From Myxococcota bacterium (GTDB taxonomy: Bacteria > Myxococcota_A > UBA796 > CAJQPC01): 47,339 nt of DNA. Both the position numbers and the translations under genes were made by a program. The DNA is taken from assembly GCA_036337845.1 (NCBI GenBank), contig JAYZDK010000165.1:1-47339 (forward strand). Direction: 5' to 3'. The notes under the pieces are model-generated. The model saw nothing but the letters and a program-made list of their open reading frames with translations, was not told the origin of the DNA and did not search any database. This document shows positions 3,247-46,200 of this stretch, in pieces. Positions within the stretch are counted from its first letter, which is position 1. Every line of letters begins with the position of its first letter.

Positions 3247-4860
3247 GTGGCGAACTCCATCGAGAACCGTCCTGTCGTTCTCTGCATCATGGATGGAGTT
3301 GGGCTAGGCCGCGCTGATGATGGCAACGCCGTATGGGCAGCAGAAACCCCCGTTCTCGACGAACTCGTAAACTCGGACACTCACCGAGCACTCATCGCCC
3401 ATGGGCCACCTGTGGGATTGCCAAGCCTTTCGGACATGGGCAACTCCGAGGTCGGGCACAATGCAATCGGTGCTGGCCGCACCTTCTCTCAAGGTGCCGC
3501 GTTGGTAGACAGCGCCCTGAAGTCTGAGTCCGCCTTCCAAGGAGATTCCTGGCCGTGGCTTCTCTCCGGCGGCACCCTACACCTTCTGGGACTGCTCTCG
3601 GACGGCAATGTCCATGCCCATACACAGCACCTCTTCGCGATACTGCAGAGAGCCGCCAAAGATGGCGTAAAGACCATTCGCATTCACCTGCTCACCGATG
3701 GTCGAGATGTTGGAGAACGCACCGCTCTTGAGTTCATCCAGCCATTAGAGGAACTCCTGAAGTCTCTGTCTTCCAGTTCTCGGGACTACGCAATCGCGAG
3801 CGGCGGTGGCCGAATGAACCTCACCATGGACCGGTACGATGCAGACTGGGCCATGGTGGAGAGGGGCTGGAATTGTCATGTCCATGGCCAAGGTCGTCAG
3901 TTCTCGAGCGCCAGCATCGCCATTCAAACGCTCTACGATGAAGACCCCCAACTCACCGACCAATGGCTACCCCCCTTTGTCATCACCAATAAAGAACGTC
4001 AGCCCATTGGACGAATCTCCAACGGAGATGGCGTCCTGTTCTGGAACTTCCGCGGTGACCGCTCCATCGAAATCTCCAAGGCCTTCGAAGGCAGAGATGT
4101 GCCATTCAACCGAGGTAGCACCACCCAAGTGCGTTTCGCAGGCATGATGCAATACGATGGGGATCAGCAAATCCCCAATCGTTTTCTGGTGTCACCTCCC
4201 GCGATTGAAAGCACAGTGGGAGAACACCTGGTGGCTGCCAGGCAGAAAATCTTTGCCATCTCAGAAACCCAGAAATTCGGCCACGTGACCTATTTCTTCA
4301 ACGGAAATCGCTCGGGCTACCTGGACCCCAGCCTGGAAGTATACGAGGAGATCCCCTCGGACCGGGTTCCCTTCAATCAGGCACCCGGGATGCAAGCTCG
4401 TGCCATCACCAAGCGCACCTGCGAGGCCATTACGTCTGGCTCGTTCAATCACATCCGGCTGAACCTTCCCAATGGAGACATGGTCGGTCACACCGGAGAC
4501 TTCGATGCCACAGTGCTCGCAATGGAGGTCGTGGACCGCTGCCTTGGAGACCTGCGAGCCGCCATCGAACAGGTCGGTGGTGTTCTGCTTGTCACAGCAG
4601 ACCATGGCAACGCAGAGCAAATGTACGAATGGGACAAGAAAAACCAAGAGTACAAACGGGGAAAACATGGAGAACGAATCACCAAGACCTCCCACAGCCT
4701 GAACCCGATTCCATTTGCTGTCGTAGACCCCATGAATCGCTGGTGCTTGACCGATGTAGAGGATCCCAACCTGACACACATCGGCTCCACCCTGCTCACC
4801 CTCGCCGGTATCGAGCTGCCCCGCGGATATGTTCCCTCTTTGCTGGAGCCCCTGACGTGA
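3247..4860 (+). CDS. gpmI: 2,3-bisphosphoglycerate-independent phosphoglycerate mutase
   Basis: GTG start at 3247. The motifs VLCIMDGVGLG, DMGNSEVGHNAIGAGR, the TADHGNAE-type C-terminal region and GDMVGHTG are typical of iPGM. Length is 537 aa. Confidence 0.9.
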   Translation: MANSIENRPVVLCIMDGVGLGRADDGNAVWAAETPVLDELVNSDTHRALIAHGPPVGLPSLSDMGNSEVGHNAIGAGRTFSQGAALVDSALKSESAFQGDSWPWLLSGGTLHLLGLLSDGNVHAHTQHLFAILQRAAKDGVKTIRIHLLTDGRDVGERTALEFIQPLEELLKSLSSSSRDYAIASGGGRMNLTMDRYDADWAMVERGWNCHVHGQGRQFSSASIAIQTLYDEDPQLTDQWLPPFVITNKERQPIGRISNGDGVLFWNFRGDRSIEISKAFEGRDVPFNRGSTTQVRFAGMMQYDGDQQIPNRFLVSPPAIESTVGEHLVAARQKIFAISETQKFGHVTYFFNGNRSGYLDPSLEVYEEIPSDRVPFNQAPGMQARAITKRTCEAITSGSFNHIRLNLPNGDMVGHTGDFDATVLAMEVVDRCLGDLRAAIEQVGGVLLVTADHGNAEQMYEWDKKNQEYKRGKHGERITKTSHSLNPIPFAVVDPMNRWCLTDVEDPNLTHIGSTLLTLAGIELPRGYVPSLLEPLT

Positions 4861-5864
4861 CCATCGACCTACGATCAGACACCGTGACCCGCCCCTCCGC
4901 TGGGATGATGCAGGCCATGATGACCGCGGAGGTGGGTGACGACGTGCTTCGAGACGATCCCACCGTTCACGCGCTGGAACTCGAGTCGGCCAAGATGTGC
5001 GGGAAAGAGGCCGCACTGTTCACCCCCTCGGGCACCATGGCCAACCAATTGGCCATTCGCGGATGGACACAGCCTGGCGACGAAGTCTTGATGGAAGCAG
5101 GCTCTCACCCATACAACTATGAATCCGCAGCCCATGCCGCGATTTCAGGGGTTCAAATCCGCCCCATCCCAGCAACGCTCGGCATCCTCGACCCCCAAGA
5201 TGTCGCAGACTGCATTCGGCCTGTAGACGACCACTTTGCACCCGCACGGCTTCTGTGTGTTGAAAATACATCCAATCGTGGTGGGGGCACGGTCTATCCC
5301 TTGGATCGGCTCGATGAGCTCACGAATCTGGCACACACACGAGGACTTAAAGCCCACCTCGATGGTGCTCGGGTCTTCAATGCCGTCGCTGCAAGCGGCC
5401 AGCCCCTGGCGCGTATCGCCCAAGGTTTTGACTCTGTCGCCTTCTGCCTATCCAAAGGACTCGGTGCGCCCGTCGGCTCTATTCTATGCGGACCGGCCGA
5501 CTTCATCGTCAACGCCCGACGGATGCGGAAGATGCTCGGTGGCGGAATGCGCCAAGCCGGTTTCCTGGCCGCCGCTGGGCTCTATGCACTCCGCCACAAT
5601 GTAGACAGGCTCACCGAAGATCACACCCGTGCCAGCGTGCTCTATCAAGGGCTCTTGAACATGGGCATCGAGGCGGTAGAACCTCAAACCAACATGGTCT
5701 ATGCCAGCGTATCCAACGCCAACGATCTGGTACAGCATCTCGGTGAACAAGAGATCCAGATTCTCGCTGTAAACGCCAACACCGTGCGCCTGGTCACACA
5801 TCTGGATGTGGACGACCAAGGGATTGAAACGATGCTCCAAGCCATGCGGGCTTGGACGCGCTGA
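4857..5864 (+). CDS. ltaE: Low-specificity L-threonine aldolase
   Basis: TIDLRSDTVTRPSAGMMQAMMTAEVGDDVLRDDPTVHALE...FTPSGTMANQLAI closely parallels the LtaE N-terminus. The ORF track extends to 4629, inside gpmI. I use GTG 4857, which overlaps the gpmI stop as GTGA, giving 335 aa. Confidence 0.85.
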   Translation: MTIDLRSDTVTRPSAGMMQAMMTAEVGDDVLRDDPTVHALELESAKMCGKEAALFTPSGTMANQLAIRGWTQPGDEVLMEAGSHPYNYESAAHAAISGVQIRPIPATLGILDPQDVADCIRPVDDHFAPARLLCVENTSNRGGGTVYPLDRLDELTNLAHTRGLKAHLDGARVFNAVAASGQPLARIAQGFDSVAFCLSKGLGAPVGSILCGPADFIVNARRMRKMLGGGMRQAGFLAAAGLYALRHNVDRLTEDHTRASVLYQGLLNMGIEAVEPQTNMVYASVSNANDLVQHLGEQEIQILAVNANTVRLVTHLDVDDQGIETMLQAMRAWTR

Positions 5865-15377: not shown

Positions 15378-16328
15378 ATGACGGAACCCACTGGCAATTC
15401 GCCCCCCGTGGACACAGCCCTGACCCGGTCTCAGTTCACGCACTTGCGCCGACTCGAATCCGAAAGCATTCACATCATGCGAGAGGTCGTCGCGGAGTCG
15501 GAAAACCCCGTGATGCTCTATTCCGTCGGAAAAGACAGCGCGGTAATGCTGCATCTGGCCATGAAGGCCTTCCACCCCTCCGTGCCCCCATTTCCAATCC
15601 TTCACGTCGACACAACGTGGAAGTTCAGCGAGATGATCACCTTCCGGGACAACCTGGCAAAGGAGCTGGGACTCGAACTACTGGTGCACGTCAACGAAGA
15701 AGGGCGCTCCCAAGGTATCAACCCCTTCGAGCATGGATCCGCACTCTACACAGACATCATGAAAACAGAAGGCCTGAAGCAAGCTCTCGCCAAGTATGGC
15801 TTTGATGCTGCATTCGGAGGCGCCCGAAGAGATGAGGAGAAATCCCGAGCGAAAGAGCGAATCTTCTCCTTCCGAACGGCCCAACACCGCTGGGACCCCA
15901 AAAACCAACGCCCCGAGTTGTGGAACATCTACAACGCTCGCAAACACCCGGGTGAGTCCATTCGAGTGTTTCCATTGTCGAACTGGACCGAACTCGATGT
16001 CTGGCAGTACATCCATATCGAGAAGATTCCCATCGTTCCGCTGTACCTCTCTGCAGTTCGACCTGTGGTCGAGAGAGATGGCGTGCTCATTCTGGTCGAT
16101 GACGAGAGGCTACCTCTTGAGGCCGGAGAAGAGCCCATGATGAAACATGTACGGTTTCGTACCCTGGGCTGCTACCCCCTGACAGGCGCCGTGGAGTCCA
16201 AGGCAGACACCCTGCCGCTGATCATCCAAGAAATGTTGTTGACCACCACCTCCGAAAGACAAGGCCGCGTCATCGATTTCGACAGTCCCGGCTCCATGGA
16301 GAAGAAAAAGCAGGAGGGCTACTTCTAA
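15378..16328 (+). CDS. cysD: Sulfate adenylyltransferase subunit 2
   Basis: [43 protein letters not shown] is the PAPS-reductase-like SGGKDS-type loop typical of CysD. GAGGAA lies 8 nt upstream. Confidence 0.9.
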
Positions 16329-18232
16329 TGGCCCACAAATCAGATCTGATTGCCGAAGACATCCACGCCTACCTCAAGGCCCAGGAAAACAAGGGCCTGC
16401 TGCGTTTCATCACCTGTGGCTCCGTAGACGACGGAAAATCCACCCTGATCGGACGTCTCCTGTATGAATCCAAGCTGCTTTTTGAAGACCAACTGGCAGT
16501 GCTGGAAATGGATTCGAAGAAATCCGGCACCCAAGGAGAAGAGATCGACCTGGCACTCCTCGTGGATGGCCTCGCAGCCGAACGGGAGCAAGGCATCACG
16601 ATCGATGTTGCGTACCGATTCTTCTCGACAGACCGTCGGAAGTTCATTGTGGCAGACACCCCCGGCCACGAACAGTACACCCGCAATATGGCCACCGGAG
16701 CCTCCACAGCAGACGTAGCCATCGTTCTGATCGATGCCCGAAAGGGAGTCCTGACCCAAACCCGTCGACACAGTTTTATTGTCTCGATGTTGGGCGTAAA
16801 GAAGGTGGTGCTGGCGATCAACAAGATGGACCTGGTGGACTACGCAGAAGACACCTTTGTCCAAATTGAGGCCGACTACCGAGAGTTTGCAGAAAACGCC
16901 CTCGATTTCGAGGATATCACCGCGATTCCAGTGTCTGCCCTCAAAGGGGACAACATCATCGAACCCGGCGAACACACCTCGTGGTACACCGGACCTTGCC
17001 TGCTGGAATACCTGGAAACCACCAAAGTCAAAGAAAAGCAGGATTCCTTGCCTTTCCGGTTTCCCGTTCAGTGGGTGAACCGCACCTCTCATGATTTCCG
17101 AGGATTTGCCGGACAAATCAGCGGCGGCTGCGTGCACCCGGGAGACCGAGTTCGAGCACTACCTTCGGGACGCGAAAGCAGGGTAGCCCGCATCGTGACC
17201 TATGAAGGAGATCTAGACCAGGCGATCAGTGGCCAGTCCGTGACCTTGACCCTGGAAGATGAGATCGACATCTCTCGAGGCGATGTACTCGCCGCAGCGG
17301 ATTCGCCCTGCAGTGTGGCCGATCAGTTCGAGGCCCGCATTCTGTGGATGGCCGATGAGCCCATGCTCCCCGGACGCCCCTACCTGATGAAGATCGGAGC
17401 CCACCAGGTCACGGTTTCCCCCGCGAAACCCAAACACAAGATCAACGTCAACACCTTGGCGTTGGAGCCAGCCAAGACCCTTGGGCTCAACGAGATTGGG
17501 GTCTGCAATATTTCCTTGGATCAAGACATCCCGTTCGACGCCTATGACGAAAACCGTGCCATGGGCGGCTTCATCATGATCGACAAGATGACCAACAACA
17601 CGGTGGGAATGGGGCTGCTCAACTTCGCCCTGAGACGTGCATCGAACATCCACTGGCAATCCATGGATATCGACAAAACTGCGCGTGCGACCCAGAAGAA
17701 CCAGCGGCCCGCAGTCCTTTGGTTTACCGGACTCTCTGGGTCTGGGAAGTCCACCATCGCCAACATCGTCGAGAAAAAGCTCCATGCCCAGGGCAAACAC
17801 ACCGTGACGCTCGACGGCGACAACATCCGCCACGGCCTCAACAGAGACCTGGGCTTCACCTCCGCCGACCGGGTCGAGAACATTCGCCGCGTAGGAGAAG
17901 TTGCCAGACTTATGGTCAACGCCGGGCTGATCACCATCACAGCCTTCATCTCTCCATTCCAATCGGAACGGGAACTGGCTCGCGGACTGGTCGACGAGGG
18001 TGAATTCGTGGAGATTCACGTGAACACTCCCTTGCACCTCGCCGAAGAACGGGACGTAAAGGGCTTGTACAAGAAAGCTCGTGCCGGAGAAATCAAGAAC
18101 TTCACAGGGATCGACAGCCCCTACGAAACACCGGAACACCCGGAAATCCGACTGGACACTGAAACGAACTCTGCTGAGGCCTGCGCCGAAGCCGTCATCG
18201 AATGGCTCGACAAGGCCGGCTACCTCTCGTAG
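16328..18232 (+). CDS. cysNC: Bifunctional sulfate adenylyltransferase subunit 1 / adenylylsulfate kinase
   Basis: The N-terminal GTPase has [23 protein letters not shown] and NKMD. The C-terminal APS kinase has [17 protein letters not shown]. The ATG overlaps the cysD TAA as TAATG. Confidence 0.9.
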
Positions 18233-19560: not shown

Positions 19561-19626
19561 CCGGCCCCCTAGGCTTGAATTCCCGTCCATCTTGGAGGAC
19601 CATTCTTGCTGGCAGTGGAGCGCAGG

Positions 19627-20880
19627 ATGCGTCCTATAGGGGTACTCACAGGACTGATGATGGTCTGCACGGCAGGTGCAGCGCACGCTCAGGATGTGGA
19701 CAAATTCGATTTTTCGCCCGGCGTTCTCGATGGTGGGGGGGGCGTTCAAATCCCCACCGTGCACAAGAACGAACCCGGCGCCTGGTACGCCGGCGCAGGC
19801 GTCGTGCTCTCAAACGACCCCTTGGTCCTGCGACTCGGCAACGGGGACGAGGAAGCCTTGGTAGGGCAGGTCTTCTCAGCACGACTGCTCACCGGAGTAA
19901 CCGTCCCTGGCAATATTCGAATTGAGCTACAGGCCCCCTACTACCCAAGCATTGAAATTGGAGGGAATCCGGCCTCAGGCCCCGGGGACATACAAGCTTC
20001 CACAACCGTTCCATTACCGATAGACGGTCCTATTTCCCTGGCCCTGCGACCCCAATTTTCTGTTCCTACAGCAGCACCGGACCTTTACATCAGCGATGGC
20101 TTCTCCGGAGGACTACTCGTCCTGGCCTCCGGCGACGCAGACCCATTGATATGGCAAAGCGAAATAGGAACGGTCCTGGGCAGCCCCACCTGTCTGGAAG
20201 GAGATGGCCCCGACTGTAGCGGTGGCGTGTGGCTTGGTCGTGAACTCATCGGCGGATTTGGGCTGGGCTATCCAGTCAGCCCAAGAGCTACCGTGGGCGC
20301 CGAAATGATTACCCATGTGGGCATTGCCGGTGGCGAGGCCTCTTTCACCAAGAACCCCACGGACATGCACCTGTACGCACTCTTTGGAGACGGTTCAGGA
20401 CTCATGGCTTCTGTAGCCGGCGGCACCGGTGTGGTGGCCGGAGTCGGCGCACCAGACTGGAGATTGTCGTTTTCGATCGGGTGGCGCGACCCAGGGACCC
20501 CTCCAGACTCGGATGGGGACGGCGTCCTCAACATCAACGACCAATGTCCAGATGAGCCCGAGGACATCGACAATTTCAAGGATGAAGATGGGTGTCCTGA
20601 CGACGACAACGACAACGACGGAGTCCCGGACCGCAAGGACCGCTGTCCCGACAAGAAGGAAGACCTCGACGGTGCAGATGACTCCGATGGTTGTCCCGAA
20701 TACGACAACGACGGAGACCGGGTACTCGATGTAGACGATGCATGTCCCAACAAGTACGGCGCCCCCCAGGCCAAGGGTTGTCCGGATCGAGACAAGGACG
20801 GGGTACCAGACAGCACCGATCAATGCTTGCGGACCTTTGGTACAAAACAGAACAATGGATGTCCTGAGGACACCGAATAA
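19627..20880 (+). CDS. Exported beta-rich protein with C-terminal thrombospondin type-3 (Ca-binding) repeats and no OmpA_C domain
   Basis: ATG 19627 with GGAG upstream. The signal peptide is MRPIGVLTGLMMVCTAGAAHA. A Gly/Ala-rich alternating region of about 280 aa follows, and then DSDGDGVLNINDQCPDE / DEDGCPDDDNDNDGVPDRKDRCPD repeats. Confidence 0.6.
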   Translation: MRPIGVLTGLMMVCTAGAAHAQDVDKFDFSPGVLDGGGGVQIPTVHKNEPGAWYAGAGVVLSNDPLVLRLGNGDEEALVGQVFSARLLTGVTVPGNIRIELQAPYYPSIEIGGNPASGPGDIQASTTVPLPIDGPISLALRPQFSVPTAAPDLYISDGFSGGLLVLASGDADPLIWQSEIGTVLGSPTCLEGDGPDCSGGVWLGRELIGGFGLGYPVSPRATVGAEMITHVGIAGGEASFTKNPTDMHLYALFGDGSGLMASVAGGTGVVAGVGAPDWRLSFSIGWRDPGTPPDSDGDGVLNINDQCPDEPEDIDNFKDEDGCPDDDNDNDGVPDRKDRCPDKKEDLDGADDSDGCPEYDNDGDRVLDVDDACPNKYGAPQAKGCPDRDKDGVPDSTDQCLRTFGTKQNNGCPEDTE

Positions 20881-23690
20881 TGCTTCTGATATCCCTGCTT
20901 TTCTCTAATGCTTGGGCCAACGGAAACGCGGTCACGTTCGATGGCAACGACAACAACAACCCAGACCAGGTCGTGCTTGGAACCCTGAACCCTGGCAGTG
21001 GCTTTACCGTAGAGACCTGGGTGGAGTTTGACTCGATCAGCGACTGGAACACTGTTGTCGAGGCCGTGAACCCACTGTCCTCCAGAAACGCGTTCTATTT
21101 CGGCTACGTCCAAGGCCAGTGGCAGATCGAGGCCAACGACAACACGGTATGGGAAGGTGATTCCTGCGGCGATGGAGTCGCTCTGTGCACCTCGTACTCC
21201 CTCAGCACAAATACCGCCTACCACCTGGCAATCCGAGTGGATGGCGCGGACATCACTCTGTTCATCAACGGTGTGGAAGAGGCCAGTGACACACTGACCG
21301 CACCTATTTTCGGCAGCATCGCAGTCTGGGGCATGGGAGCCGACTCCGACAATGGGAGCGCCTTCACCTCGGATCGCATGAATGGCACTCAGGACGAACT
21401 CAGGGTCTGGAGCAAGGCCCTCTCCCAAGCCGAAATTCAGTGCACTCAGAACTACGCCTTGAGTGGTTCGGAGCCCGACCTGTACGCCTACTACCCCTTG
21501 GACGAGTCGCCAGGCTCTACCACCACTGTGGACGCCACGGGCAATGGTCACAACGGCACCTTGTACGGAGATGCGGACTTTATCGCCTCTCCCTTTGGCC
21601 TGACCCCATCCAACGGCGGCGACATCGGCTGTCTGGACTTCGATGAGGATGGCTTCACGCCAGATGCTGGGGATTGCGACGATACAGACCCCGATGTCTA
21701 CCCTGGCAGCACCGAGGTCTGCGACGGCATCGACAATGACTGCGACGGCACCACCGACGAGCCCGATGCCACGGATGCTCTCACCTGGTTCGAGGATGCC
21801 GATGCCGATGGGTACGGAAACCCCTCCTCGACGGCTCCCGGCTGCACAGCACCGAGCGGCTACGTCTCCGATGACACCGACTGCGATGACTCCGCCAACA
21901 ATGCAAATCCCGGGGCTACAGAGTTCTGTGATGGGATCGACAACGACTGTGACGGCACTGTCGACGAAGATGACGCAAGTGATGCCCTGGTCTGGAACAT
22001 CGATCACGACGGCGATGGCTATGGCAACTCGGCCTACACAACGACTGCCTGCAACCAACCCAACGGCTACGTCAGTGACGATACCGACTGCGAGGACCTC
22101 GACGCCAGCGCCTTTCCGGGTGCAACAGAGACCTGTGATGGCGTAGACAACGACTGCGATGGCACCATCGACGGCAGCAGTGCGGTGGATGCCACCACCT
22201 ACTACGCAGACAGCGATGGAGATGGGTTTGGTGACAGCGCCACCACAGCCACGGCCTGCGAGGCCTCCTCAGGCTGGGTGGAAAATTCAGAGGACTGCGA
22301 CGACACTCAGGCCACAACCAATCCGGACGCCGATGAGGTCTGCGACGGGGCGGACAACGACTGCGATGGCACCACGGATGAAAACACGGCCATCGACACC
22401 AGCACCTGGTACGCAGATGCGGACGGCGACGGCTACGGAAACGCCAACTACACTACCGAGGCTTGCAACCAGCCGAACGGTTGGGTCGCAGACAGCACAG
22501 ACTGTGACGATGGCAGTGCGGCGGCCTATCCCGGTGGCACGGAAGTTTGCGACACTCGCGACAACGACTGTGACGGAACTGTTGACGAATCCGACGCCAC
22601 AGATGCGAGCACCTGGTATGCGGATGCGGACGGAGACGGATTCGGCAACGCCAGCGACAGCCAGATCGCCTGTGACCCCCCAAGCGCCACGGTAGACGAC
22701 AACACCGACTGCGATGACTCAGATGCCACCATCAATCCCGACGCACTGGAGACCTATTACGACGGGGTCGATTCCAACTGTGACGGCGCCTCGGACTACG
22801 ATGCAGACGAAGACGGCTACGACAGTGTCGACTACAACGGTGATGACTGCGACGACACCGACGAGGACATCAACCCAGACCAGACCGAGATCTACTACGA
22901 CGGCATCGATTCCGATTGTGACGGCCTGTCAGACTACGACGCCGATGGCGACGGCTACGACTCGGCGAGCTTTGGCGGAGACGACTGTGACGACGGCAAT
23001 GCCGATACCTACCCTGGGGCACCCGACACCCCACACGACGGGGTCATCAACGACTGCGATCTGTCCTCCGACCATGACGCCGACGGAGACGGTTACGACT
23101 CCGCCGCATACGGAGGAGACGACTGTGACGATAACAATTCCACCACACATCCCGGTGCAGAAGATCCCTTCTACGACGGCATCGATTCCAACTGTGATGG
23201 CTTAGACGACTTCGACCAGGACGGCGATGGCTACCCCGTCGACATCGACTGCGACGATGAAAATGCGGACATCCACCCAGACGCTGAAGACGTCTACTAC
23301 GACGGTATCGATTCCAACTGTGACGGCTTAGACGACTTCGACCAGGACGGCGATGGCTACCCCATCGACACGGATTGCGATGACGAAGACCCCACCGCAT
23401 TCCCAGGTGCTCCCGGCTGGTCGGAAGATTGCGAAGAGATTGGCGACACGGGCACAGACACCTCAGAACCTGCCGATACCGGGGACACCGGCTCCGTAGA
23501 CACCGGCGCACCACCCATCGACAGCGGCCTGTTCGACACCGGCATAGGCAGCGCTGGCATCAAGGGCGGTGGAGGCTGTTCTTGCAGTCAACAAGAGGGA
23601 CCAGGGGCCGGTCTGTGGTGGCTCATGGCACTCTTGGTGCCGATTTCACGCAGACATAGAAAACAGAGACCGCCGCCATGCCCGAAATAA
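20880..23690 (+). CDS. LamG-like jellyroll + MopE-type metal-binding-motif repeats + D/C-rich short repeats + MYXO-CTERM-like tail
   Basis: The ATG overlaps the upstream TAA as TAATG. The N-terminal LamG_3-like region includes FTVETWVEFDS and DELRVWSKALSQAEI. There are at least 5 canonical repeats of the form CDDxDxxxxPGxxExCDGxDNDCDGTxDE. The tail is GGGGCSCSQQEGPGAGLWWLMALLVPISRRHRK. Confidence 0.7.
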   Translation: MLLISLLFSNAWANGNAVTFDGNDNNNPDQVVLGTLNPGSGFTVETWVEFDSISDWNTVVEAVNPLSSRNAFYFGYVQGQWQIEANDNTVWEGDSCGDGVALCTSYSLSTNTAYHLAIRVDGADITLFINGVEEASDTLTAPIFGSIAVWGMGADSDNGSAFTSDRMNGTQDELRVWSKALSQAEIQCTQNYALSGSEPDLYAYYPLDESPGSTTTVDATGNGHNGTLYGDADFIASPFGLTPSNGGDIGCLDFDEDGFTPDAGDCDDTDPDVYPGSTEVCDGIDNDCDGTTDEPDATDALTWFEDADADGYGNPSSTAPGCTAPSGYVSDDTDCDDSANNANPGATEFCDGIDNDCDGTVDEDDASDALVWNIDHDGDGYGNSAYTTTACNQPNGYVSDDTDCEDLDASAFPGATETCDGVDNDCDGTIDGSSAVDATTYYADSDGDGFGDSATTATACEASSGWVENSEDCDDTQATTNPDADEVCDGADNDCDGTTDENTAIDTSTWYADADGDGYGNANYTTEACNQPNGWVADSTDCDDGSAAAYPGGTEVCDTRDNDCDGTVDESDATDASTWYADADGDGFGNASDSQIACDPPSATVDDNTDCDDSDATINPDALETYYDGVDSNCDGASDYDADEDGYDSVDYNGDDCDDTDEDINPDQTEIYYDGIDSDCDGLSDYDADGDGYDSASFGGDDCDDGNADTYPGAPDTPHDGVINDCDLSSDHDADGDGYDSAAYGGDDCDDNNSTTHPGAEDPFYDGIDSNCDGLDDFDQDGDGYPVDIDCDDENADIHPDAEDVYYDGIDSNCDGLDDFDQDGDGYPIDTDCDDEDPTAFPGAPGWSEDCEEIGDTGTDTSEPADTGDTGSVDTGAPPIDSGLFDTGIGSAGIKGGGGCSCSQQEGPGAGLWWLMALLVPISRRHRKQRPPPCPK
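22730..23420 (+). repeat. In-frame array of roughly 42-46-codon D/C-rich repeats, with the last two units nearly identical at the DNA level
   Basis: The units read (Y)YDG(I/V)DS(N/D)CDGxxDxDxDGDGY...DCDDxxxxxxP. Segments 23171-23243 and 23297-23369, offset by 126 bp, differ at only about 3 positions by eye. Confidence 0.7.
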
Positions 23691-23917
23691 GCATTCGCTA
23701 CTGTGTTCCCTGAGGCTACCTCCCCCGCGCCACCGGTCTGGCGGCGCTATTGAAGTCCGAACTCGGTGTAACGGCAAGCCTCACCGAAGGAGACCGTGGG
23801 GAGTTTAGTGTGTGGGTCGGAGACACCTGCATCGCCGATAAACACTTAAAAAAATGTAACGAGTTTCCCGAAACAGAAGCCCTGATCCAAAAAGCCAAAG
23901 CCCTACTGAACCAATAG
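23678..23917 (+). CDS. SelW/Rdx-family thioredoxin-fold selenoprotein candidate (in-frame TGA = Sec at codon 12)
   Basis: ATG 23678. The translation is MPEISIRYCVP[TGA 23711-23713]GYLPRATGLAALLKSELGVTASLTEGDRGEFSVWVGDTCIADKHLKKCNEFPETEALIQKAKALLNQ, ending at TAG 23915-23917. The TGA falls at the second position of the family CxxC/CxxU motif. The frame stays open for 67 more codons with family-like GxFxVxV...FPE. A hairpin follows the TGA. Confidence 0.7.
23726..23746 (+). promoter_or_regulatory. Bacterial SECIS-like stem-loop downstream of the UGA
   Basis: The 5' arm CGCGCCA (23726-23732) pairs with UGGCG(G)CG (23739-23746), leaving one bulged G. The apical loop is CCGGUC. The loop GG lies 22-23 nt after the UGA. 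The GGUCUG segment resembles my recollection of the E. coli fdhF SECIS apex. Confidence 0.45.
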
Positions 23918-23918
23918 G

Positions 23919-25712
23919 CTATCGCTTCCGTCTCTTCTTTCGGCCTTTCTTTCCGGACTTCTTACCGCTCCCTTCCTGGCCCGACTCGGAAGAGGCCTCG
24001 TTCTTGGCCCGGCGTGCTTCCTTCGCCTCCGCCTCACGCTCTTTCTTCTTCAGACGCTTCTTCTCAGCCTTGGCCTCTCGTTTTTCAATCCGAGCCTTCT
24101 CAGCGACCGCTTCTGCGCTGAGGTGATCCTCTTGATCCTTGGAAACATACTCCCCGTAGGTGCCCGGAAAATCATTGATCCCCTCTTCGGTGATCTCCAA
24201 GACCCTCGTGGCCAACTTGTCTACAAACCAGCGATCATGAGACACAAATATAATGGTGCCATCATAGGCGAGCAGCCCCTCTGCCAGCGCTGCAATCCCC
24301 TCCATATCCAGGTGGTTTGTAGGCTCATCCAACACCAACACCGTATCTTCAAGCACACTAAGCCGTGCAAATAGAAGACGGGCTGCCTCTCCACCCGAGA
24401 GGTTGGTGAGTTTCTTGTCCACGTCATCCCGTGAGAACAATACTTCCGCCAGCCGCCCGTGGATCTCTCCGATTGGAGCGTCCCCCTTGGAATCCCACAG
24501 GAACCCCAGCACGCTCTGTGTTGGGTCCCCCATGGCAGCCTGGTGATCCTGCGGAAAATACCCCGGAGTGGATTCAAACCCCCACTCAAACTCCCCCGCA
24601 TCCGCAGAAACCTCGTTCATCAGGATCTTTAAAAGTGTCGACTTCCCAATACCGTTGGGGCCAATGATTGCAAGCCGATCACCGCGTTCTACCGAAAAAC
24701 CGACTTCTTCCAAGACCGAGTTGTCGCCATAGGATTTCCAAATCCCATCCACTTTCAGCACCTCCCGCCCACTGAGACGTCGACCCTTGAGTTTGAAGTG
24801 AGGGTATCGACGTGAACTCACGGGAAGCGATTCGATCACAATCTTTTCGACCCGCTTGACCCGCGAGTTGGCTTGCCTGGCTTTTGTGGCTTTGGCTTTG
24901 AATCGAGCAATGAAGGCTTTGTGGTCCTCAATCTCCTTTTCTCGCTTGGAAATCTCCGATTCCATCCTCTCGCGAGCCTGGCTTTTTTGTTCCATAAAAG
25001 AATCGTAATTGCCCCGATAAAGGGTCACCCGCTCATAGTCCACATCCACAATATGCGTGCACACCCGGTTGAGGAAGCGATGGTCATGAGACACTACGAC
25101 GGCACAGCCTGAGTAGCCCTGTAGAAAGCCCTCCAGCCATTGAATGGAGAGAATATCCAAGTGGTTTGTGGGCTCATCCAGCAGAAGAATGTCCGGTTCT
25201 GAGGCCAGGGTTTTACCCAGCAGCGCTCGGAGCTTGTAGCCTCCAGACAACACGGAGAGGGGCTCTTGGTGAGAAGCCGTGGGAATGTTCAGTCCCTCTA
25301 GGATCTCGGCGGCTCTCGCCTCAAGACTATAGCCGTCGTACTGCAGGACAATGTCTTCCAATCGCGTGTAGCGATCGTCATCAAATTCCTCGTGAGCACG
25401 CTCAAGCAGCGCCTCCTTTTCCACCATGGCGTTCCACAACACCTCATTGCCCATCATGACCACTTGGAGAATGGAGGTGTTCTCGTAGGCGAAATGGTCT
25501 TGTTCCAGCATGCCTACCCGCGCTCTCTTGACCCTAGCAACAGAGCCGCTCGACGCGCTCTCCTCCTCGCACAAGATACGCAAAAGAGTCGATTTTCCAG
25601 ACCCATTCGCCCCAACAATACCGTAGCGAGAGCCGGCGTTGAGTTGCAGGGATGCATCCTCAAACAAGACCTGCGGCCCATAGGTCTTCGAAAGTTCGGA
25701 GATGGTTAGCAT
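23919..25712 (-). CDS. ABC-F family ATPase (Uup/EttA-like) with a Lys/Arg-rich C-terminal tail
   Basis: It has two ABC cassettes. Walker A motifs are GANGSGKST and GPNGIGKST. Signature motifs are LSGGYKLR and LSGGEAARL. Walker B motifs are LLLDEPTNHLD and LVLDEPTNHLD. There is no TM domain. The tail contains KKSGKKGRKKRRKR. Confidence 0.9.
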   Translation of the reverse strand: MLTISELSKTYGPQVLFEDASLQLNAGSRYGIVGANGSGKSTLLRILCEEESASSGSVARVKRARVGMLEQDHFAYENTSILQVVMMGNEVLWNAMVEKEALLERAHEEFDDDRYTRLEDIVLQYDGYSLEARAAEILEGLNIPTASHQEPLSVLSGGYKLRALLGKTLASEPDILLLDEPTNHLDILSIQWLEGFLQGYSGCAVVVSHDHRFLNRVCTHIVDVDYERVTLYRGNYDSFMEQKSQARERMESEISKREKEIEDHKAFIARFKAKATKARQANSRVKRVEKIVIESLPVSSRRYPHFKLKGRRLSGREVLKVDGIWKSYGDNSVLEEVGFSVERGDRLAIIGPNGIGKSTLLKILMNEVSADAGEFEWGFESTPGYFPQDHQAAMGDPTQSVLGFLWDSKGDAPIGEIHGRLAEVLFSRDDVDKKLTNLSGGEAARLLFARLSVLEDTVLVLDEPTNHLDMEGIAALAEGLLAYDGTIIFVSHDRWFVDKLATRVLEITEEGINDFPGTYGEYVSKDQEDHLSAEAVAEKARIEKREAKAEKKRLKKKEREAEAKEARRAKNEASSESGQEGSGKKSGKKGRKKRRKR

Positions 25713-30731: not shown

Positions 30732-31343
30732 ATGGCATACCCCGAGCAGCCCGACCGCCTCAGAGAAGCTGCGGAACAGGTAAGAGCACACCTGGTACAG
30801 CTTCGCGGAGGAGCCCCCTTTCTCTCGCCTGTAGACTCCAGACTGCTGCTGGAATGGCTGGAAGCCGGGATTCCAGTGGCTTTGATACTCCGCACGCTGG
30901 AAAAAGTAGCCGCTCAAAGAGCCGCAAAGAGAACCCGGGCTCCACTGACATTGAACGCTTTGAAAAGAACCCTCAAAAAAGAGGTAAAACACGAGGCCAA
31001 GCCCGAAGAGTGCACATCACTGTCCACACTGGTGAGTGCATTGCGCACATCTTCAGATACCCAGGAAAGAGCCATCGCAGAAGAGTTCGCCGGAATGACG
31101 GAGCAAGGAGAGGCGCTCGTGGAGCAGGCCCTCGATGCAGCCCGTCGATTCTTCGATCGAAAACTGGAAGAGGCCGATCGCGAGCAACTCACCGCAGTAG
31201 CCGAGGCTGAGCTCGCCGATCTCAAGGATGTGTTTTCCGCGCAACAATGGGAACGAGCCGTGGAACAAGCCATTCGACAAAATCTACGGGAATCACACCC
31301 ACTACTGTCCGCTTCTTCAATCTGGGATACGGTGTTTCCATGA
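30732..31343 (+). CDS. Hypothetical helical protein (possible DnaD-like replication organiser; tentative)
   Basis: AAGGAAGG lies upstream of ATG 30732. FLSPVDSRLLLEWLEAGIPVALILRTLEKV resembles the DnaD/DnaB_2 C-terminal motif by eye only. Its stop overlaps the next gene's start as ATGA. Confidence 0.5.
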   Translation: MAYPEQPDRLREAAEQVRAHLVQLRGGAPFLSPVDSRLLLEWLEAGIPVALILRTLEKVAAQRAAKRTRAPLTLNALKRTLKKEVKHEAKPEECTSLSTLVSALRTSSDTQERAIAEEFAGMTEQGEALVEQALDAARRFFDRKLEEADREQLTAVAEAELADLKDVFSAQQWERAVEQAIRQNLRESHPLLSASSIWDTVFP

Positions 31344-32179
31344 CCGTTCAGGCCAACGCAATCCGAGCCAACCCCACCTGCGAGAACTGTCGTGGGGAAG
31401 GGCTGTGCATCGAGATCCGCGGGCCTTTGGCCCATGCCACACAATGCGACTGCATTCCGGACTGCACCACCTGTGGAGGACAAGGTCGCCGATTGGTGCG
31501 AGAGGATGACATTCCCCGCATGGTGCCGTGCTCATGCAGACTGTTCACCCACCGCGCAGAGTTGTTCAATCAGGCTCGAATCCCCGCCCGCCACGCAAAT
31601 GCTTCTTTTCAGAGCTTCGAACACAGCTCCAAGGAGGCCACTCGCGCACTCGGCGGCACGATGACCTGGTGCAAGTCATTCGTAGAGGGAGGCGCGAGCA
31701 GCAAAGGCTTGATTCTTCATGGTGGGGTTGGGCGAGGGAAAACACACCTCATGATCGCCGCCATTCGATCGCTGATTCTCGACCACGGCGTTTCGGTGAG
31801 GTTCATCGAGTTCTCCCATCTTCTAGCCGACCTCAAGAAGGGTTTTGACGAGGGGCGAGGAGAGTCAAAGACGCTTGGAGCCCTCGGTCAAATCGATCTC
31901 TTGGCCATCGATGAACTCGGAAAGGGCAAGTCCACAGACTGGGAAAGGGCCGTGGCCGATGAACTCATCTCCAAGCGCTACAACAGTATGAAGCCCCTAC
32001 TTGCCACCACCAACTACCCACCGGCACGCTCCTCCGGTGTTCGAACTTCAAACCTGTCCGACGAAATCTCACTACAAACACTGGAAGACCGCGTAGGCGA
32101 ACGAGTTTTCAGTCGCTTGATGCAGATGTGCGACATCCAGAGAGTCGAGGGCGAAGACTACCGAGCCAAGGGGCAGTAA
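31340..32179 (+). CDS. DnaC/DnaI/IstB-like AAA+ ATPase with an N-terminal Cys-rich zinc-ribbon region
   Basis: Walker A is GGVGRGKTH, Walker B is DLLAIDELG, and sensor-1 is ATTN. The N-terminus is CENCRGEG...CDCIPDCTTCGGQG...CSC. I use ATG 31340, which overlaps the upstream stop. Confidence 0.75.
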   Translation: MTVQANAIRANPTCENCRGEGLCIEIRGPLAHATQCDCIPDCTTCGGQGRRLVREDDIPRMVPCSCRLFTHRAELFNQARIPARHANASFQSFEHSSKEATRALGGTMTWCKSFVEGGASSKGLILHGGVGRGKTHLMIAAIRSLILDHGVSVRFIEFSHLLADLKKGFDEGRGESKTLGALGQIDLLAIDELGKGKSTDWERAVADELISKRYNSMKPLLATTNYPPARSSGVRTSNLSDEISLQTLEDRVGERVFSRLMQMCDIQRVEGEDYRAKGQ

Positions 32180-32196
32180 ACAAAGCCCGTCACCCC

Positions 32197-35187
32197 ATGG
32201 TAGGATTCAGTAGTTTCGGGTGTAGAAGACGTATGCCAATTGCGCTCCTATTCAGCATTTTGAGCGGTTGTGCCTGGATTAGTGCCGACGAACACAAAGC
32301 ACGCCTGGATCCTGACGGCGACGATGTGCTCTGGCCCCATGACTGCGATGACACAGATTCCGAAATCGGTGAGTTGACCTGGTACTTCGATAACGATGGA
32401 GATGGCTACGGCGGCGGAAGCGGTGAAGAACGATGTGAAGGCGAAGAGGGCGAAACCACCCGGGACGGCGACTGCGACGACACCAATCCCGACATTCACC
32501 CCAACGCCATTGAATTCTGTAACGAAATCGACGACAACTGCGATGGCGAGACAGACAACAACCCTGGTGAACAGCGGTGGTATCGAGATGTCGATGCCGA
32601 TGGTTGGGGAACCGCCGACGAATACGTCCTGAGAACCGACTGTGCCGTGCAGCCTGGTGATTACACCCAGCAGTCAGGAGACTGTAACGATTACAACTCC
32701 ACAATCTATCCTGGAGCGGATGAATACTGCGACGATGAAGACACCGACTGCGACGAGGATACTCGAGACCCCCACTCTGTCGATGCATTGCCCTGGCACC
32801 CCGATGTAGATGGAGACGGATTTGGAGACATGTACGCTCCGATATTCGACTGCGATCAGCCCGAAGGGCTGATGGAAGACGCCAGCGACTGCAACGACCA
32901 GGACGCCACCATCAACATCAACGGCCAGGAGGTCTGCGATGAAGACGACCAAGACGAAGACTGCGATGGAGCCATCGACGACGCAGACGATACGGTCGAC
33001 CCGAGCACCTACAAGACCCTCTACGAAGACCTGGATGACGATGGGTTTGGCTCCCTACCGGTATTAGGCTGCGACCCTCAGGATTTCCAGGCCGCCAACG
33101 CTGGAGACTGCGACGACACTCGGGCCGACATCTCGCCCGCAGGCACAGAAATATGCGATCCCAACAACGAGGACGAAGACTGTGATGGGCTCCGAGACGA
33201 CGCGGATGACAGCTTGTCGGCCGCGAGCACCATTGCCCACTACGCCGACAGCGATGGTGATGGCTACGGGGATACCACCGCAGTGTTCCTGTGCGATCCC
33301 ACCACCGAATACCCCACCACAGACAACTCGGATTGCGACGACACTCGGGCCGACATCTCGCCCGCAGGCGTTGAGGTGTGCGACGACCTCGATGAAGACG
33401 AGGACTGCGATGGCGCCGTCGACAGTGCCGATGACAACGTAGCCCCCGATTCCTTTCAGGAGTGGTACCAGGATGGCGATGGAGATGGCTATGGCTCGAC
33501 AAGCGCTCCACAGACCGCCTGCGATCCGCCACCGGGCTACGGGTCTGGAACAGGCGACTGCGACGACACAGACCCAACCATCTCGCCCGATGCCACAGAG
33601 ATCTGGTACGACGGCGTAGACCAGGACTGCAACGGCGTGGACGACTATGACGCAGACGGCGATGGATATCGCAGCGATAGCCACCCAGACTTAGGGGGTT
33701 CGTACGGAACAGACTGTGACGACGCTGTCTTCATGGTCAACCCGGGCCTGGATGAAATCTGCAATGACGGCTGGGACAACGACTGCGACGCCACAACCGA
33801 TCTCCTCTGTGGCCTTCAGTCCGAAATCTCGGTCATAGATGCCGAGGCCTCTTTCATACCCGAAGGTTCATCTGACGAACCCGGCCTGGCAGTGGGAGGT
33901 GGCCAAGACCTCAACCTGGATGGCCTGAGCGACATCATTATCGGCGCACCTGGATTTGATGGAGTCGCACCCAATGCTGGTGCTGCGTATGTGTTTTACG
34001 GACCAATCACAGGCGCCACCGACCTGGCTTCTGCCGATCTGCGCATTCTGGGTGTAGGCACCGATAGCTTTGCTGGCACGGCGGTCACGCTCCTGGATGA
34101 TATGACCGGGGACGGCATTGCAGACATTGGCGTCGGAGCCTACAACCGCCTCGGCGACATGGGTACCGCCTACGTGATCGACGGGACCGCGACGGGACCC
34201 GTCAGCGTACTCGATGCCACCTACTCCACTCAGTTCTTTGGAAGCTCTGCAGGTGACATGCTCGGCTATTCCATGGCCAACGTAGGAGACTTCAACGCGG
34301 ACGGATCTGCCGATTGGCTTGTGGGGGCACCGGCCATTGGAAGCGGGAATCCCGGCGAGGCCTACCTCCTCTATGGGCCCCTTACCAGCGTCTCTTATGA
34401 CCCGAGCACGGCAGACGTGCAGATCAGTGGTGAACAAGCCGATGACCTGGCCGGCTACGATCTGGCCGGCGGTGGCGACCTGGATGGCGATGGAATCTCC
34501 GACATCATTGTCGGCGCACCCTTCTATGACGACCTCAGCGCCGGTGTAGAAGATGTAGGGCGGGCCTATGTCATACCCGGTAGCGGAACGCCCATGCCCC
34601 CCATCAACTTGAGCGACGGGTTCGTACACCAACTCAGTGGGAACTCGGAATACAGCGGAGAAGCGGGCAACTCTGTGGCCGGCGCCGGTGATGTGAACGC
34701 AGATGGCTATGACGACGTAATCGTGGGTGCCCACAAAGAAAACGACCCCGTGCTCGAAGCCGGCTCAAGCTACGTCTTGTTCGGCCCTATCACTACAGAT
34801 CTGTCTCTGGACACAGCCAATGCAAAGCTCACCGGCGGCAGTGTCACAGGACACCTGGGCGTCAGCGTCGATGGCGCTGGGGATGTCAACGCAGACGGCT
34901 TCTCTGATCTCATCGTAGGTGCCAAAGACGAAGACATCGGCGGGCACGACAGTGGTGTGGTGTACGTGGTTTTTGGCCCGGTTTCCGGGACTCAAGCCTG
35001 TGTTCCCAACGAGCCGCTGCAATGCTTGCGTCTGGGTTCGGGAGACCCCCGCATCTACGGGCAACAAAACCACTACCTGGGAACCTCTCTTTCCGGAGTG
35101 GGCGACACCAACGGCAATGGATTTGATGACGTGCTGCTCGGCACCTCGGGGGAAGGGGCGTTTCTGCTCCTGGGAGGCGATATCTGA
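32197..35187 (+). CDS. Large lipoprotein: MopE-type repeats followed by an FG-GAP (integrin-alpha-like) beta-propeller
   Basis: ATG 32197 gives MVGFSSFGCRRRMPIALLFSILSGC, with a basic n-region and the canonical L-S-G-C lipobox; ATG 32233 is an alternative. There are about 8 CDDTxxxIxPxxxExC(D/N)xxDxDCDG repeats. These are followed by repeated GDxNADGxxDxxVGAP FG-GAP motifs. Confidence 0.75.
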   Translation: MVGFSSFGCRRRMPIALLFSILSGCAWISADEHKARLDPDGDDVLWPHDCDDTDSEIGELTWYFDNDGDGYGGGSGEERCEGEEGETTRDGDCDDTNPDIHPNAIEFCNEIDDNCDGETDNNPGEQRWYRDVDADGWGTADEYVLRTDCAVQPGDYTQQSGDCNDYNSTIYPGADEYCDDEDTDCDEDTRDPHSVDALPWHPDVDGDGFGDMYAPIFDCDQPEGLMEDASDCNDQDATININGQEVCDEDDQDEDCDGAIDDADDTVDPSTYKTLYEDLDDDGFGSLPVLGCDPQDFQAANAGDCDDTRADISPAGTEICDPNNEDEDCDGLRDDADDSLSAASTIAHYADSDGDGYGDTTAVFLCDPTTEYPTTDNSDCDDTRADISPAGVEVCDDLDEDEDCDGAVDSADDNVAPDSFQEWYQDGDGDGYGSTSAPQTACDPPPGYGSGTGDCDDTDPTISPDATEIWYDGVDQDCNGVDDYDADGDGYRSDSHPDLGGSYGTDCDDAVFMVNPGLDEICNDGWDNDCDATTDLLCGLQSEISVIDAEASFIPEGSSDEPGLAVGGGQDLNLDGLSDIIIGAPGFDGVAPNAGAAYVFYGPITGATDLASADLRILGVGTDSFAGTAVTLLDDMTGDGIADIGVGAYNRLGDMGTAYVIDGTATGPVSVLDATYSTQFFGSSAGDMLGYSMANVGDFNADGSADWLVGAPAIGSGNPGEAYLLYGPLTSVSYDPSTADVQISGEQADDLAGYDLAGGGDLDGDGISDIIVGAPFYDDLSAGVEDVGRAYVIPGSGTPMPPINLSDGFVHQLSGNSEYSGEAGNSVAGAGDVNADGYDDVIVGAHKENDPVLEAGSSYVLFGPITTDLSLDTANAKLTGGSVTGHLGVSVDGAGDVNADGFSDLIVGAKDEDIGGHDSGVVYVVFGPVSGTQACVPNEPLQCLRLGSGDPRIYGQQNHYLGTSLSGVGDTNGNGFDDVLLGTSGEGAFLLLGGDI

Positions 35188-43285: not shown

Positions 43286-46200
43286 TTACAAGCCGTTGGG
43301 GTAGGAAGCATCGCAAGTGCTGGCCGCGGCCCCTGGAGTACCCGAATTTCCGTTTGTAAAATCGTACTGGTCGGTGAATTCGGCCGGATAGCACCAGAGG
43401 GTGCCATCATCATTCTCAGTGGCCGTAAGGTTTGCTGGGTTGAGCGTCAGGCTCGCGCCTTCGACGATCGTGGGCCAACCCGACTGCCCCGGGGTCCAAC
43501 TCACCACATCGATAGAGTCACCGTCCAAGTCGAGGCTCAAGCTAGCGTTCAGGTCGGTGGAGAGACAAAACGAGGCCTCTGAGGTCGCGCCCTGTTGAGA
43601 GGTGCCGTTCACATCCGAGCCATAAACATAGTCACAGAAGGGCCCCAGCACGTCGTCGGAATGACACAGCACGGCATAGCCACTCGCCCCCACAACCAAC
43701 CCATCGACACCCACCACAAACTCAGCTCCGCTATCGCAGCTAGTGCTGAATCTCAGCCCATCCACAAACATATCCACGCTGGTCGGGTTGTAGATCTCAA
43801 ACCATTCCAAATCAGGCTCTGGGCCCGCTGGATCCGCATGAATCTCCGTAATGACGAGGTCACCAGCCAGGCGGAAGGTCTCGTCTACCAGATCGTCACA
43901 GTCATCATCGAGCTCGTTGGCCACCTCAGAGGCTGCGGAGTTGATTGCCGAATCGGTGTCGTCGCAGTCCGTGTCATCCGCGACATAGCCGGTGGGCACA
44001 GAACAATCCTCGGTGGAGGAATCGGGATTACCAAAGGTGTCGGCGTCCGCATCTTCATAGAAAGTGATCGTCACGCCATCGTCGACACCTCCCTGGCAGT
44101 CATCATCGATGTCATTGCATACTTCTGATGCACTGGTATTGACGCTGGCATTCGTGTCGTCACAATCGCCACCGGAGCTCACTGAGCCCGCGCCGTCCCA
44201 ACCGCCCGCATCGAGCACACAGATCGCTTCCAGATCACCGTCTCCATCCACCTCATCCGCAAGCAGCGAGCCGTCACAGTCGTTGTCCTGGCCATCGCAC
44301 AGCTCTACGGCACTCAAGAACACAGTGGCATCGCTGTCGTCGCAGTCATCGTTTGTGGCCGAACGCCCTGGCCCCAAATCACAGAAGATGAGCGAGTTCG
44401 TCTGGCTCTCATCGCCCTGGCCATCCCCATCGCTATCTGGGAACCACCCCGTACCTCCACTAGCACCCTCTGGATCGCTGTCGTCCGCCTGGCCGTCACA
44501 ATCCTCGTCCACGTTGGCAGCGTCACAGGTTTCGGCAGCGCCAGGACTGATTGCAGGGTCTGAATCATCGCAATCCCCACCGTCGGGCACTACGCCGCCA
44601 GGATCGGCGCACGCGGTCACCTCGGAGTCGTCATCTCCATAGGAGTCCCCATCCAGATCGGCATACCAACTATCGGCATCAATCGCACTGCCTTCATCGG
44701 GAGTTCCGTCGCAATCGTCATCCACTCCAGGGGTGCTGCAGAGCTCATTTTCCGCCGGATTGATATCGTCGTTACCGTCGTCGCAATCGTCTGCATTATC
44801 AGCCGTGAAGGTTCCACTGGGATCACAAGCTGAGTTGGGCGACACATTCGGATCACCGAACCCATCGAGATCACCATCGAAGTACCAGTCGGTGGGCCCC
44901 AACGCCCCTTCGGGATCATTGTCGTCGGTCTGGCCATCACAATCCTCGTCTACATCGCCCGCATCACAGACTTCCGCAGCAGCCGGACTGATGCCCGGGT
45001 CTGAATCATCGCAATCTTCATCACCCGAACTGGAGACGTACCCACTCGGCTGAGCACACGCTGCCGTGGTGGCGGTGGAGGTTCCAAAACCATCTCCATC
45101 GGCATCCTGGTAGAAGGTAATCGCATCAGAAGCGAAGTCGTCCACCACCCCACTACAGTCGTTGTCCAGACCATCGCACACCTCTGGTACTCCGGGAAAA
45201 ACGGAATCCAACAGGTCGTCGCAGTCTCCACCATCCGTGATGACCAGGGTGCCATCCCAACCCCCACTGTCGACCACACACTCCACGTAGCCGTCGCCAT
45301 CGTCGTCGTTTTCTTCTGGCGAAACCAGGCCATCGCAATCGTTGTCCCGACCATCGCAGAGCTCGGTGGCATTCGGATGGACCTGACTCGCATCCAACTC
45401 TCCAGGATCATCCAGGCAGTCATCCCCCCCTTGAATGCTCACGCCATCCCAGCCGCCGCCATCCACAGAACACTCCACGTATTGATCGGCGTCGTGGTCG
45501 AGTTCTACATCGGGAATCTGGCCATCGCAGTCGTTGTCGAGCCCATCGCAGAGCTCAGTGGCCTGCGGAAAAACCGTGCCGTCGGTGTCCTGACAATCAT
45601 CTGCTACCGCGACAAACCCGGTCGGGGCATCACAAGCATCTGCTACCTGCGTGACATCACCAAAGCCATCGGAGTCGAGATCTCGATACCAGAGGGTTGT
45701 GTTCTCAGCATCGGCTTCATCGATTTCTCCATCGCAGTCGTCATCGTGTCCATCACAGAACTCCAATGCGTTTGGATGGGCATCCGGGTCCGTGGGGCTG
45801 CAATCCAGGTCGTTGTCCACATAGGTGACCCCCGAGACCACCGGAGCCGAACACGCCAACTGCGTATCTAGTGGGTCCCCAAAACCATCACTGTCAGAGT
45901 CCGCGTACCAGGTGAGCGCGTCTGAGGCATCCGCTCCATCCACGGTTCCATTGCAGTCGTTGTCCAAGCCATCGCAAATCTCAACACCCGCATCGGCTTC
46001 TGGGGTGTCCGGGTCATCTGGATAGGCCGCCGCATGATTGTCATCACAATCTCCCGCCCGCGTGGCATTGAATGGCACAAAGGGCTCGCAGGTACATGCG
46101 GGCGCCAAGGAGTCACTTCCAAAGCCATCGCTATCGACATCCGCGTACCAGGTGCTGCAATCGAAAGCGCCTTCATCGTTGGCGCTGCCATCACAATCGT

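Follow-up and report, generated by a model that had tools for sequence, protein, structure and literature searches.

A 47,339-nucleotide stretch of contig JAYZDK010000165.1, here called the window, carries on its forward strand, at positions 23678-23917, what is very probably a functional gene for a selenocysteine (Sec)-containing protein of the Rdx family (SelW/SelT/SelH). The open reading frame (ORF) crosses one in-frame TGA and belongs to the Rdx family by hidden Markov model (HMM) comparison. The TGA and both of its flanks are conserved in relatives, and the TGA is followed by a hairpin that is constrained at the RNA level. Judged from sequence and homology, the product is most likely a small cytoplasmic thioredoxin-fold oxidoreductase in which the second active-site residue is Sec. 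The features of the locus are the following:

23678..23917, + strand: coding sequence (CDS) of the putative SelW-like/Rdx selenoprotein, 79 residues (translation, Pfam PF10262, relatives, ratio of nonsynonymous to synonymous substitution rates, dN/dS)
23702..23713, + strand: redox motif C9-V-P-U12, TGT GTT CCC TGA (alignment to the CxxC of 3DEX and 2OJL)
23711-23713, + strand: predicted Sec codon UGA, codon 12
23727..23747, + strand: hairpin of the bacterial Sec insertion sequence (SECIS) type (folding, published constraints, comparison of 44 genes)
23678..23690, + strand: 13-nt start/stop overlap with the upstream gene (read from the sequence; same in relatives)
20880..23690, + strand: upstream gene of a 936-aa Cys-rich protein (Pfam, NCBIfam, orthologues)
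23828..23857, + strand: clade-specific Cys pair C51 (23828-23830) and C60 (23855-23857), motif CIADKxLKxC

Translation from the ATG at 23678 gives MPEISIRYCVP, the TGA, GYLPRATGLAALLKSELGVTASLTEGDRGEFSVWVGDTCIADKHLKKCNEFPETEALIQKAKALLNQ and the stop TAG at 23915-23917 (MPEISIRYCVPUGYLPRAT...LLNQ). The CDS has 79 sense codons including the single in-frame TGA, and the translation is identical to the one quoted in an earlier sequence-only reading of this DNA. The same reading had held that the apparent gap at this place is coding, that the ATG overlaps the upstream Cys-rich gene by 13 nt and that TGA keeps its ordinary meaning as a stop, and these statements stand. The 936-aa ORF ends with TAA at 23688-23690, with the selenoprotein ATG 13 nt inside its end, and the convergent ABC-F ORF (597 aa) ends at 23919, which leaves an apparent gap of 228 bp (23691-23918). 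The mechanical ORF list holds only fragments here, such as a 55-aa ORF from the TTG at 23750. TGA is the stop of 16 of the 29 large ORFs in the window, among them a thiolase ORF that is domain-complete, with a Pfam match reaching the last residue, which means that there is no global recoding. When ORFs reading through a TGA were sought among candidates mostly outside called genes, five emerged, of which only 23678-23917 has a recognisable protein sequence.

The HMM searches used the translation with C in place of U. Pfam Rdx (PF10262) is matched with 46.8 bits, where the gathering score is 22.6, and with an E-value of 3.4e-12, beyond what chance would give. The match is full-length, residues 3-72 falling on profile positions 1-71 of 74, in agreement with the Rdx-type layout read earlier from the sequence. 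The score for the Campylobacter-type equivalog NF041051 (SelTWH_Campy) is far under its cutoff (51.3 against 88), which indicates that the gene is not this equivalog. The best matches among solved structures are Cys-form bacterial Rdx proteins (3DEX, 2OJL, 2FA8, 2OKA and 2OBK). The segment irYCvpCgyLPRA lines up with IEYCTQCRWLPRA in 3DEX and with IQYCTQCQWLLRA in 2OJL, and CVPU falls on the CxxC of these proteins, which places the TGA at the second redox Cys/Sec position, as had been proposed. By homology to the solved Rdx structures, a thioredoxin-like beta-alpha-beta-beta-beta-alpha fold is predicted.

The codon is kept as TGA among the relatives. By protein search, two close relatives came to light and no more; each had been called as a 65-aa ORF with its start just past the TGA. 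At the DNA level they share with the window the upstream ATG, the reading IRYCVP-TGA-GY and the hairpin. Four close relatives (loci L001, L002, L003 and L071) are 59-72% identical to the window protein, with the same frame and the same TGA. Further relatives come from a scan of one genome per species, which gave 43 loci. All of the 41 bacterial loci have TGA at the Sec codon, and the two archaeal loci have Cys. The scan used two search patterns, one of them able to find Cys forms only; a search bias thus does not account for the excess of Sec forms. Taken together, TGA is kept in 44/44 bacterial genes examined (the four close relatives and 40 more distant ones), with a conserved and open downstream frame, which favours the selenoprotein reading. 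The loci with TGA belong to Acidobacteriota (mostly Pyrinomonadaceae, Blastocatellia), Myxococcota, Nitrospinota, Oligoflexia and one metagenome-assembled genome (MAG) labelled Enterobacterales. Cys forms were seen only in the two archaeal loci and in other Rdx subfamilies. A metagenome scan for CVP-x-GYLPRAT with TGA, TGC or TGT returned 24 Cys-form genes, all of other Rdx subfamilies, and one more Sec copy only, on the contig of L001, which suggests that the clade is rare in that collection.

A search of a representative library gave 19 matches. The fifth clade member, L071, was found there as a 58-aa fragment, and its TGA is present. P0005 and P0007 were discarded as repetitive proteins that score through summed repeats. 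Gene callers report the relatives either as 56-65-aa fragments that start past the TGA or with a W in place of Sec, which is the usual signature of unrecognised selenoproteins. In the same library P0004 (CVEW), P0006 (CEHW) and P0019 (CVVW) are full-length Rdx homologues with Trp at the Sec column, probably from gene calls made with a table in which TGA is Trp. Many other relatives are stored as 56-61-aa fragments, and the family is systematically mis-annotated in public protein sets.

Both sides of the TGA evolve as coding sequence. Within the close clade, codons 6-11 (IRYCVP) differ only synonymously (ATT/ATC, CGC/CGA, TAC/TAT, TGT/TGC). In comparisons with unsaturated dS, the Nei-Gojobori dN/dS upstream of the TGA (codons 2-11) is 0.10-0.24 and that downstream of it (codons 13-78) is 0.12-0.27. 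Values well below 1 (about 0.1-0.3) on both flanks indicate purifying selection, and the decay of the frame in relatives that would mark a pseudogene is not seen.

The element that follows the TGA is the hairpin GCGCCACC-GGUCU-GGCGGCGC (23727-23747), which starts 13 nt after the UGA. Positions 23727-23734 pair with 23740-23747 in a stem of 7 bp with one A.C mismatch, closed by the 5-nt apical loop GGUCU (23735-23739) that begins 21 nt after the UGA; in isolation the hairpin has an energy of -13.4 kcal/mol. A consensus for bacterial SECIS elements given in a 2026 review asks for a loop of 3-9 nt with G in the first two loop positions, a stem of at least 4 bp, a distance of 16-37 nt from the UGA and a minimum free energy of -7.5 kcal/mol or lower (PMC13188914). 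The hairpin agrees with all of these constraints in its loop sequence, its 7 bp, its 21-nt spacing and its energy.

The comparison of the 44 Sec-form genes shows where the constraint acts. Five core stem pairs are nearly invariant and in register in the alignment; at pair 24-36, 41 genes have CG, one has AU and one has UA, the last two being compensated changes, and pair 26-34 has two U.G wobbles. Entropy at the four-fold degenerate third positions is 0-0.64 bit in codons 19-23 and 1.2-1.9 bit at all remaining four-fold sites of the gene, even within invariant Gly, Arg and Val residues. Since the four-fold sites are frozen only in the hairpin, the constraint acts on the RNA and not on the protein. 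All loops among the Sec forms have a G followed by U or G (GGUCU, AGUCU, AGUUU, AGGUU, CGUGU, CGGGU). The hairpin is present in none of the 24 Cys-form genes from the metagenome scan, among them genes that encode the identical peptide CVPCGYLPRAT, and hence travels with the UGA and not with the peptide. A mini-hairpin GAGG/CCUC that includes the GA of the UGA (23712-23722; also in L001, L002, L003 and L048) was rejected as a signal: its register shifts between relatives and it forms in the Cys-form L048, so that it looks like a by-product of Gly/Pro codons.

Several observations weigh against the selenoprotein reading. The translation scores 32.9 bits against the NCBIfam subfamily model TIGR02174 (CXXU_selWTH), 1.3 bits short of the cutoff of 34.2; with this cutoff and that of NF041051 missed, an annotation pipeline relying on them would probably skip the gene. 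Shuffle tests of the folding energy are unremarkable on their own (z = -0.05 for 91 nt and z = -1.5 for 42 nt), and the argument for a SECIS element is consequently a comparative one. Covariation is thin, with double changes in three pairs that mildly exceed the shuffle controls, because the stem hardly varies. RNAalifold gives a shifted 4-bp helix with zero covariation; the register 23727-23747 was chosen because it is common to the single-sequence folds and is backed by the compensated pair 24-36. A search of the whole window against Rfam and a permissive scan of 23600-23950 gave no match to a SECIS family and one meaningless match to a long non-coding RNA, since bacterial SECIS elements are too short and diverse for such models. 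Finally, selA, selB, selD and tRNA-Sec, and indeed any tRNA gene, are absent from the 47-kb window, the part of the genome that was searched. No tRNA-Sec is present in the 43 related loci either, which span at most 20 kb each and are hence uninformative on this point. The residual doubt about the Sec reading concerns the Sec machinery and the incorporation of selenium.

Three other explanations of the TGA were considered. The one that survives best, itself highly improbable, is that the UGA is read through without selenium, by a near-cognate tRNA-Trp or tRNA-Cys or after a lineage-specific reassignment, to give a CxxW or CxxC product. Library entries P0004, P0006 and P0019 do have W at this position, but they are most simply gene calls made with TGA as Trp, and Trp is unable to replace the resolving/attacking residue of a CxxC/U redox centre. 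A reassignment is at odds with the 16 of 29 window ORFs that end in TGA, domain-complete proteins among them, and simple leakiness leaves the conserved G-loop hairpin at SECIS distance unexplained.

Less probable still is that the UGA is a true stop after an 11-codon leader peptide, followed by a separate protein of 55-65 aa from an internal TTG or CTG. Gene callers do give such products (P0001 and P0002 at 65 aa, P0003 at 58 aa), and the window has its 55-aa ORF from TTG 23750. However, the internal start is unconserved: it lies at codon 25 in the window, at codon 21 in L071 and at codon 15 in both L001 and L002. The product would have neither the redox motif nor strand 1 and would lose part of helix 1 of the Rdx domain, to which the HMM match begins at residue 3. 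In codons 6-11, which precede the TGA, only synonymous changes occur, and a well-spaced GGAG ribosome-binding site precedes the upstream start in L003 and L071. Together the selection on the flanks, the unconserved internal start and the GGAG sites effectively exclude both this explanation and that of a pseudogene. The latter, in which an Rdx gene once of the Cys form (TGC/TGT) suffered a nonsense mutation to TGA and no longer expresses its full-length product, is the least probable of all: one transition or transversion would turn TGY into TGA and the Sec machinery is not found in the window, but the same TGA in 44/44 bacterial genes that are 40-72% identical with zero frameshifts or extra stops, the dN/dS well below 1 on both TGA sides and the nucleotide-level constraint on the hairpin after the TGA make it very unlikely.

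If the gene is decoded as a selenoprotein gene, expression would proceed by the established bacterial mechanism. The gene would be transcribed together with the upstream gene of a MopE-repeat/MYXO-CTERM protein, and translation would initiate at ATG 23678, 13 nt ahead of the stop of that gene. With the ribosome at the UGA (23711-23713), the hairpin would stand just outside the mRNA channel, with the GGUCU loop 21 nt downstream. SelB.GTP.Sec-tRNA(Sec) would then bind the hairpin and deliver Sec to the A site instead of release factor 2. In the product, the C9-x-x-U12 centre at the junction of strand 1 and helix 1 may cycle between selenolate/thiol and selenenylsulfide, and in this way may reduce or isomerise some thiol or disulfide substrate.

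The upstream 936-aa protein has a Laminin_G_3 domain (PF13385), at least nine putative metal-binding repeats of the MopE type (Pfam PF11617, 292 bits, nine stretches) and a C-terminal MYXO-CTERM sorting tail (TIGR03901, 22.1 bits; cutoff 20). Downstream, the convergent gene encodes an ABC-F ATPase (Pfam). Orthologues of the 936-aa protein, 81-82% identical, lie directly upstream in L001 and L002, and a MopE-repeat, MYXO-CTERM gene ends likewise in L003 and L071. The 13-nt overlap is present in 5/5 clade members (the window and the four close relatives). In L003 and L071 a GGAG-type Shine-Dalgarno sequence stands 5 nt ahead of a GTG start. Downstream synteny extends in L003 to the ABC-F protein (82% identical), a 3-hydroxyacyl-CoA dehydrogenase (81%), the thiolase (87%) and a B12-radical SAM protein (81%). 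The selenoprotein gene is probably co-transcribed with the upstream gene, and the overlap suggests translational coupling, as the earlier reading had supposed.

It is unlikely that the selenoprotein is a dedicated partner of this Cys-rich, MopE-repeat (putatively copper-binding), MYXO-CTERM-sorted surface protein, and similarly doubtful that the role of the small Sec oxidoreductase would be to hold the many cysteines of the nascent repeat protein in the reduced state, or to manage its metal loading, ahead of export. Such a partnership is favoured by the overlap in 5/5 genomes and by an extra Cys pair gained in the clade: C51 and C60 are both invariant in the window, L001, L002 and L003, and the L071 product P0003 has them too; V...G/W takes their place in the Sec forms of Acidobacteriota. 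Inherited synteny explains the linkage equally well, given how closely the five genomes are related (neighbouring proteins are about 80% identical). No partner is conserved across phyla: synteny exists only within families, and Sec-form genes elsewhere have unrelated neighbours. In L004-L018 and L041 (Pyrinomonadaceae, Acidobacteriota) the Sec-form Rdx gene is divergent to a conserved ORF of about 1000 aa similar to M16-type peptidases; this synteny is family-specific and is without counterpart in the window. If the partnership were real, it would provide the first functional context for bacterial SelW-like proteins.

The MYXO-CTERM tail, the MopE-repeat proteins, a Ser/Thr kinase and FG-GAP repeats, all encoded in the window, point to a Myxococcota host. 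Sec use has precedent in myxobacteria, since 11 selenoproteins are listed for Anaeromyxobacter (PMC1794560). L003 (CAZSZE010000131.1) comes from a MAG labelled 'uncultured Enterobacterales', yet has the MYXO-CTERM tail and synteny with the window at 80-87% protein identity; the label is probably wrong.

Other parts of the window were also noted. Large Cys-rich MopE-repeat proteins are encoded at 20880-23690, 32128-35187 and 43286-47047, with nine, two and seven stretches above threshold, and they also carry Laminin_G_3, FG-GAP or Lamin-tail domains. A 424-aa ORF (19606-20880) that immediately precedes the first of these genes has a weak C-terminal similarity, far under the cutoffs, to TraB, the myxobacterial outer-membrane exchange protein, and to MtsC, a MYXO-CTERM cohesion protein. 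Sulfate activation is encoded on the same strand at 15378-18232, 5-8 kb upstream of the selenoprotein gene, by CysD (PAPS_reduct) and a fused CysN-CysC (GTPase and adenosine 5'-phosphosulfate kinase); ATP sulfurylase also activates selenate. An IstB-like/DnaC-like AAA ATPase ORF (31247-32179) stands beside unassigned ORFs (30732-31343) and may represent either a helicase loader or what is left of an IS21-type element. The longest-ORF calls for a phosphoglycerate mutase (3247-4860) and a beta-eliminating lyase (4629-5864) overlap by about 230 nt, and the start of the lyase is probably further downstream, because its Pfam match begins at residue 80.

The analysis corrects an annotation gap by placing a real gene in a stretch that ORF finders leave empty, and it flags the host, probably a member of the Myxococcota, as a likely user of selenocysteine. 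It also provides a clean comparative case of a SECIS element as an RNA constraint within a CDS, with frozen synonymous sites in the Sec forms and hairpin-free Cys forms; the same comparison of frozen sites and hairpins could serve as a test for other candidate selenoproteins. Selenoprotein biology itself is unchanged, the family and the recoding mechanism having been established since 2004-2008. The case is an annotation miss in a well-known selenoprotein family and not a new kind of thing.

Among the prokaryotic selenoprotein families known so far, the SelW-like proteins are the most abundant (PMC1088965, PMC2398784). In the Global Ocean Sampling (GOS) marine metagenomes the SelW-like CxxU proteins comprise 427 Sec forms and 56 Cys forms (PMC2398784), and the few Cys homologues in Sec-using organisms suggest that Sec is ancestral (PMC1794560). 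The gene of the window shares the main characters of the prokaryotic family described by Kryukov, Zhang and Gladyshev from genomes, the Sargasso Sea and GOS (Rdx, PF10262, formerly PF05169): a single domain of about 75-80 residues, an N-terminal CxxU with Sec as the second redox residue, an in-CDS SECIS hairpin directly after the UGA with a G-containing apical loop, an excess of Sec over Cys forms, and genes that are usually missed or truncated by gene callers. On the other hand, the clade of the window, L001, L002, L003 and L071 has CVPUGY, whereas most other Sec forms have CV[VS]UN or CKVUAS. An A.C mismatch lies within the SECIS stem of this clade, the loop reads GGUCU, AGUCU, AGUUU or AGGUU where others have CGUGU, and the clade adds the C51/C60 pair and the 13-nt overlap with the MYXO-CTERM MopE-repeat gene.

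The solved Cys-form Rdx proteins (3DEX SAV_2001, 2OJL, 2FA8 Atu0228, 2OKA and 2OBK) have the same domain, with IxYCxxCxxLPRA, GxFxV and FPE aligned over residues 2-77, but they carry CxxC in place of CxxU, exceed the window protein in length by about 25 residues and resemble it only weakly in pairwise comparison (E 1e-3 to 4e-2). The bacterial SECIS of the E. coli fdhF type, which is recognised by SelB (Bock laboratory), is likewise an in-ORF hairpin immediately 3' of the UGA with a small GGUC/GU loop about 20 nt away. The stem sequences are unrelated, fdhF has a bulged U where the window has the A.C mismatch, and the binding of SelB is putative here. The eukaryotic SELENOW shares the Rdx fold family and the CxxU motif, and a thiol/glutathione-linked redox role is suspected for it (PMC1088965). 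Its identity to the window protein is low and it depends on a SECIS in the 3' untranslated region with SBP2 and eEFSec, whereas the window has an in-ORF hairpin of the bacterial type. The CVPUGY motif, the mismatched stem with a GGUC-type loop, the C51/C60 pair and the MYXO-CTERM overlap are thus variations within a known family.

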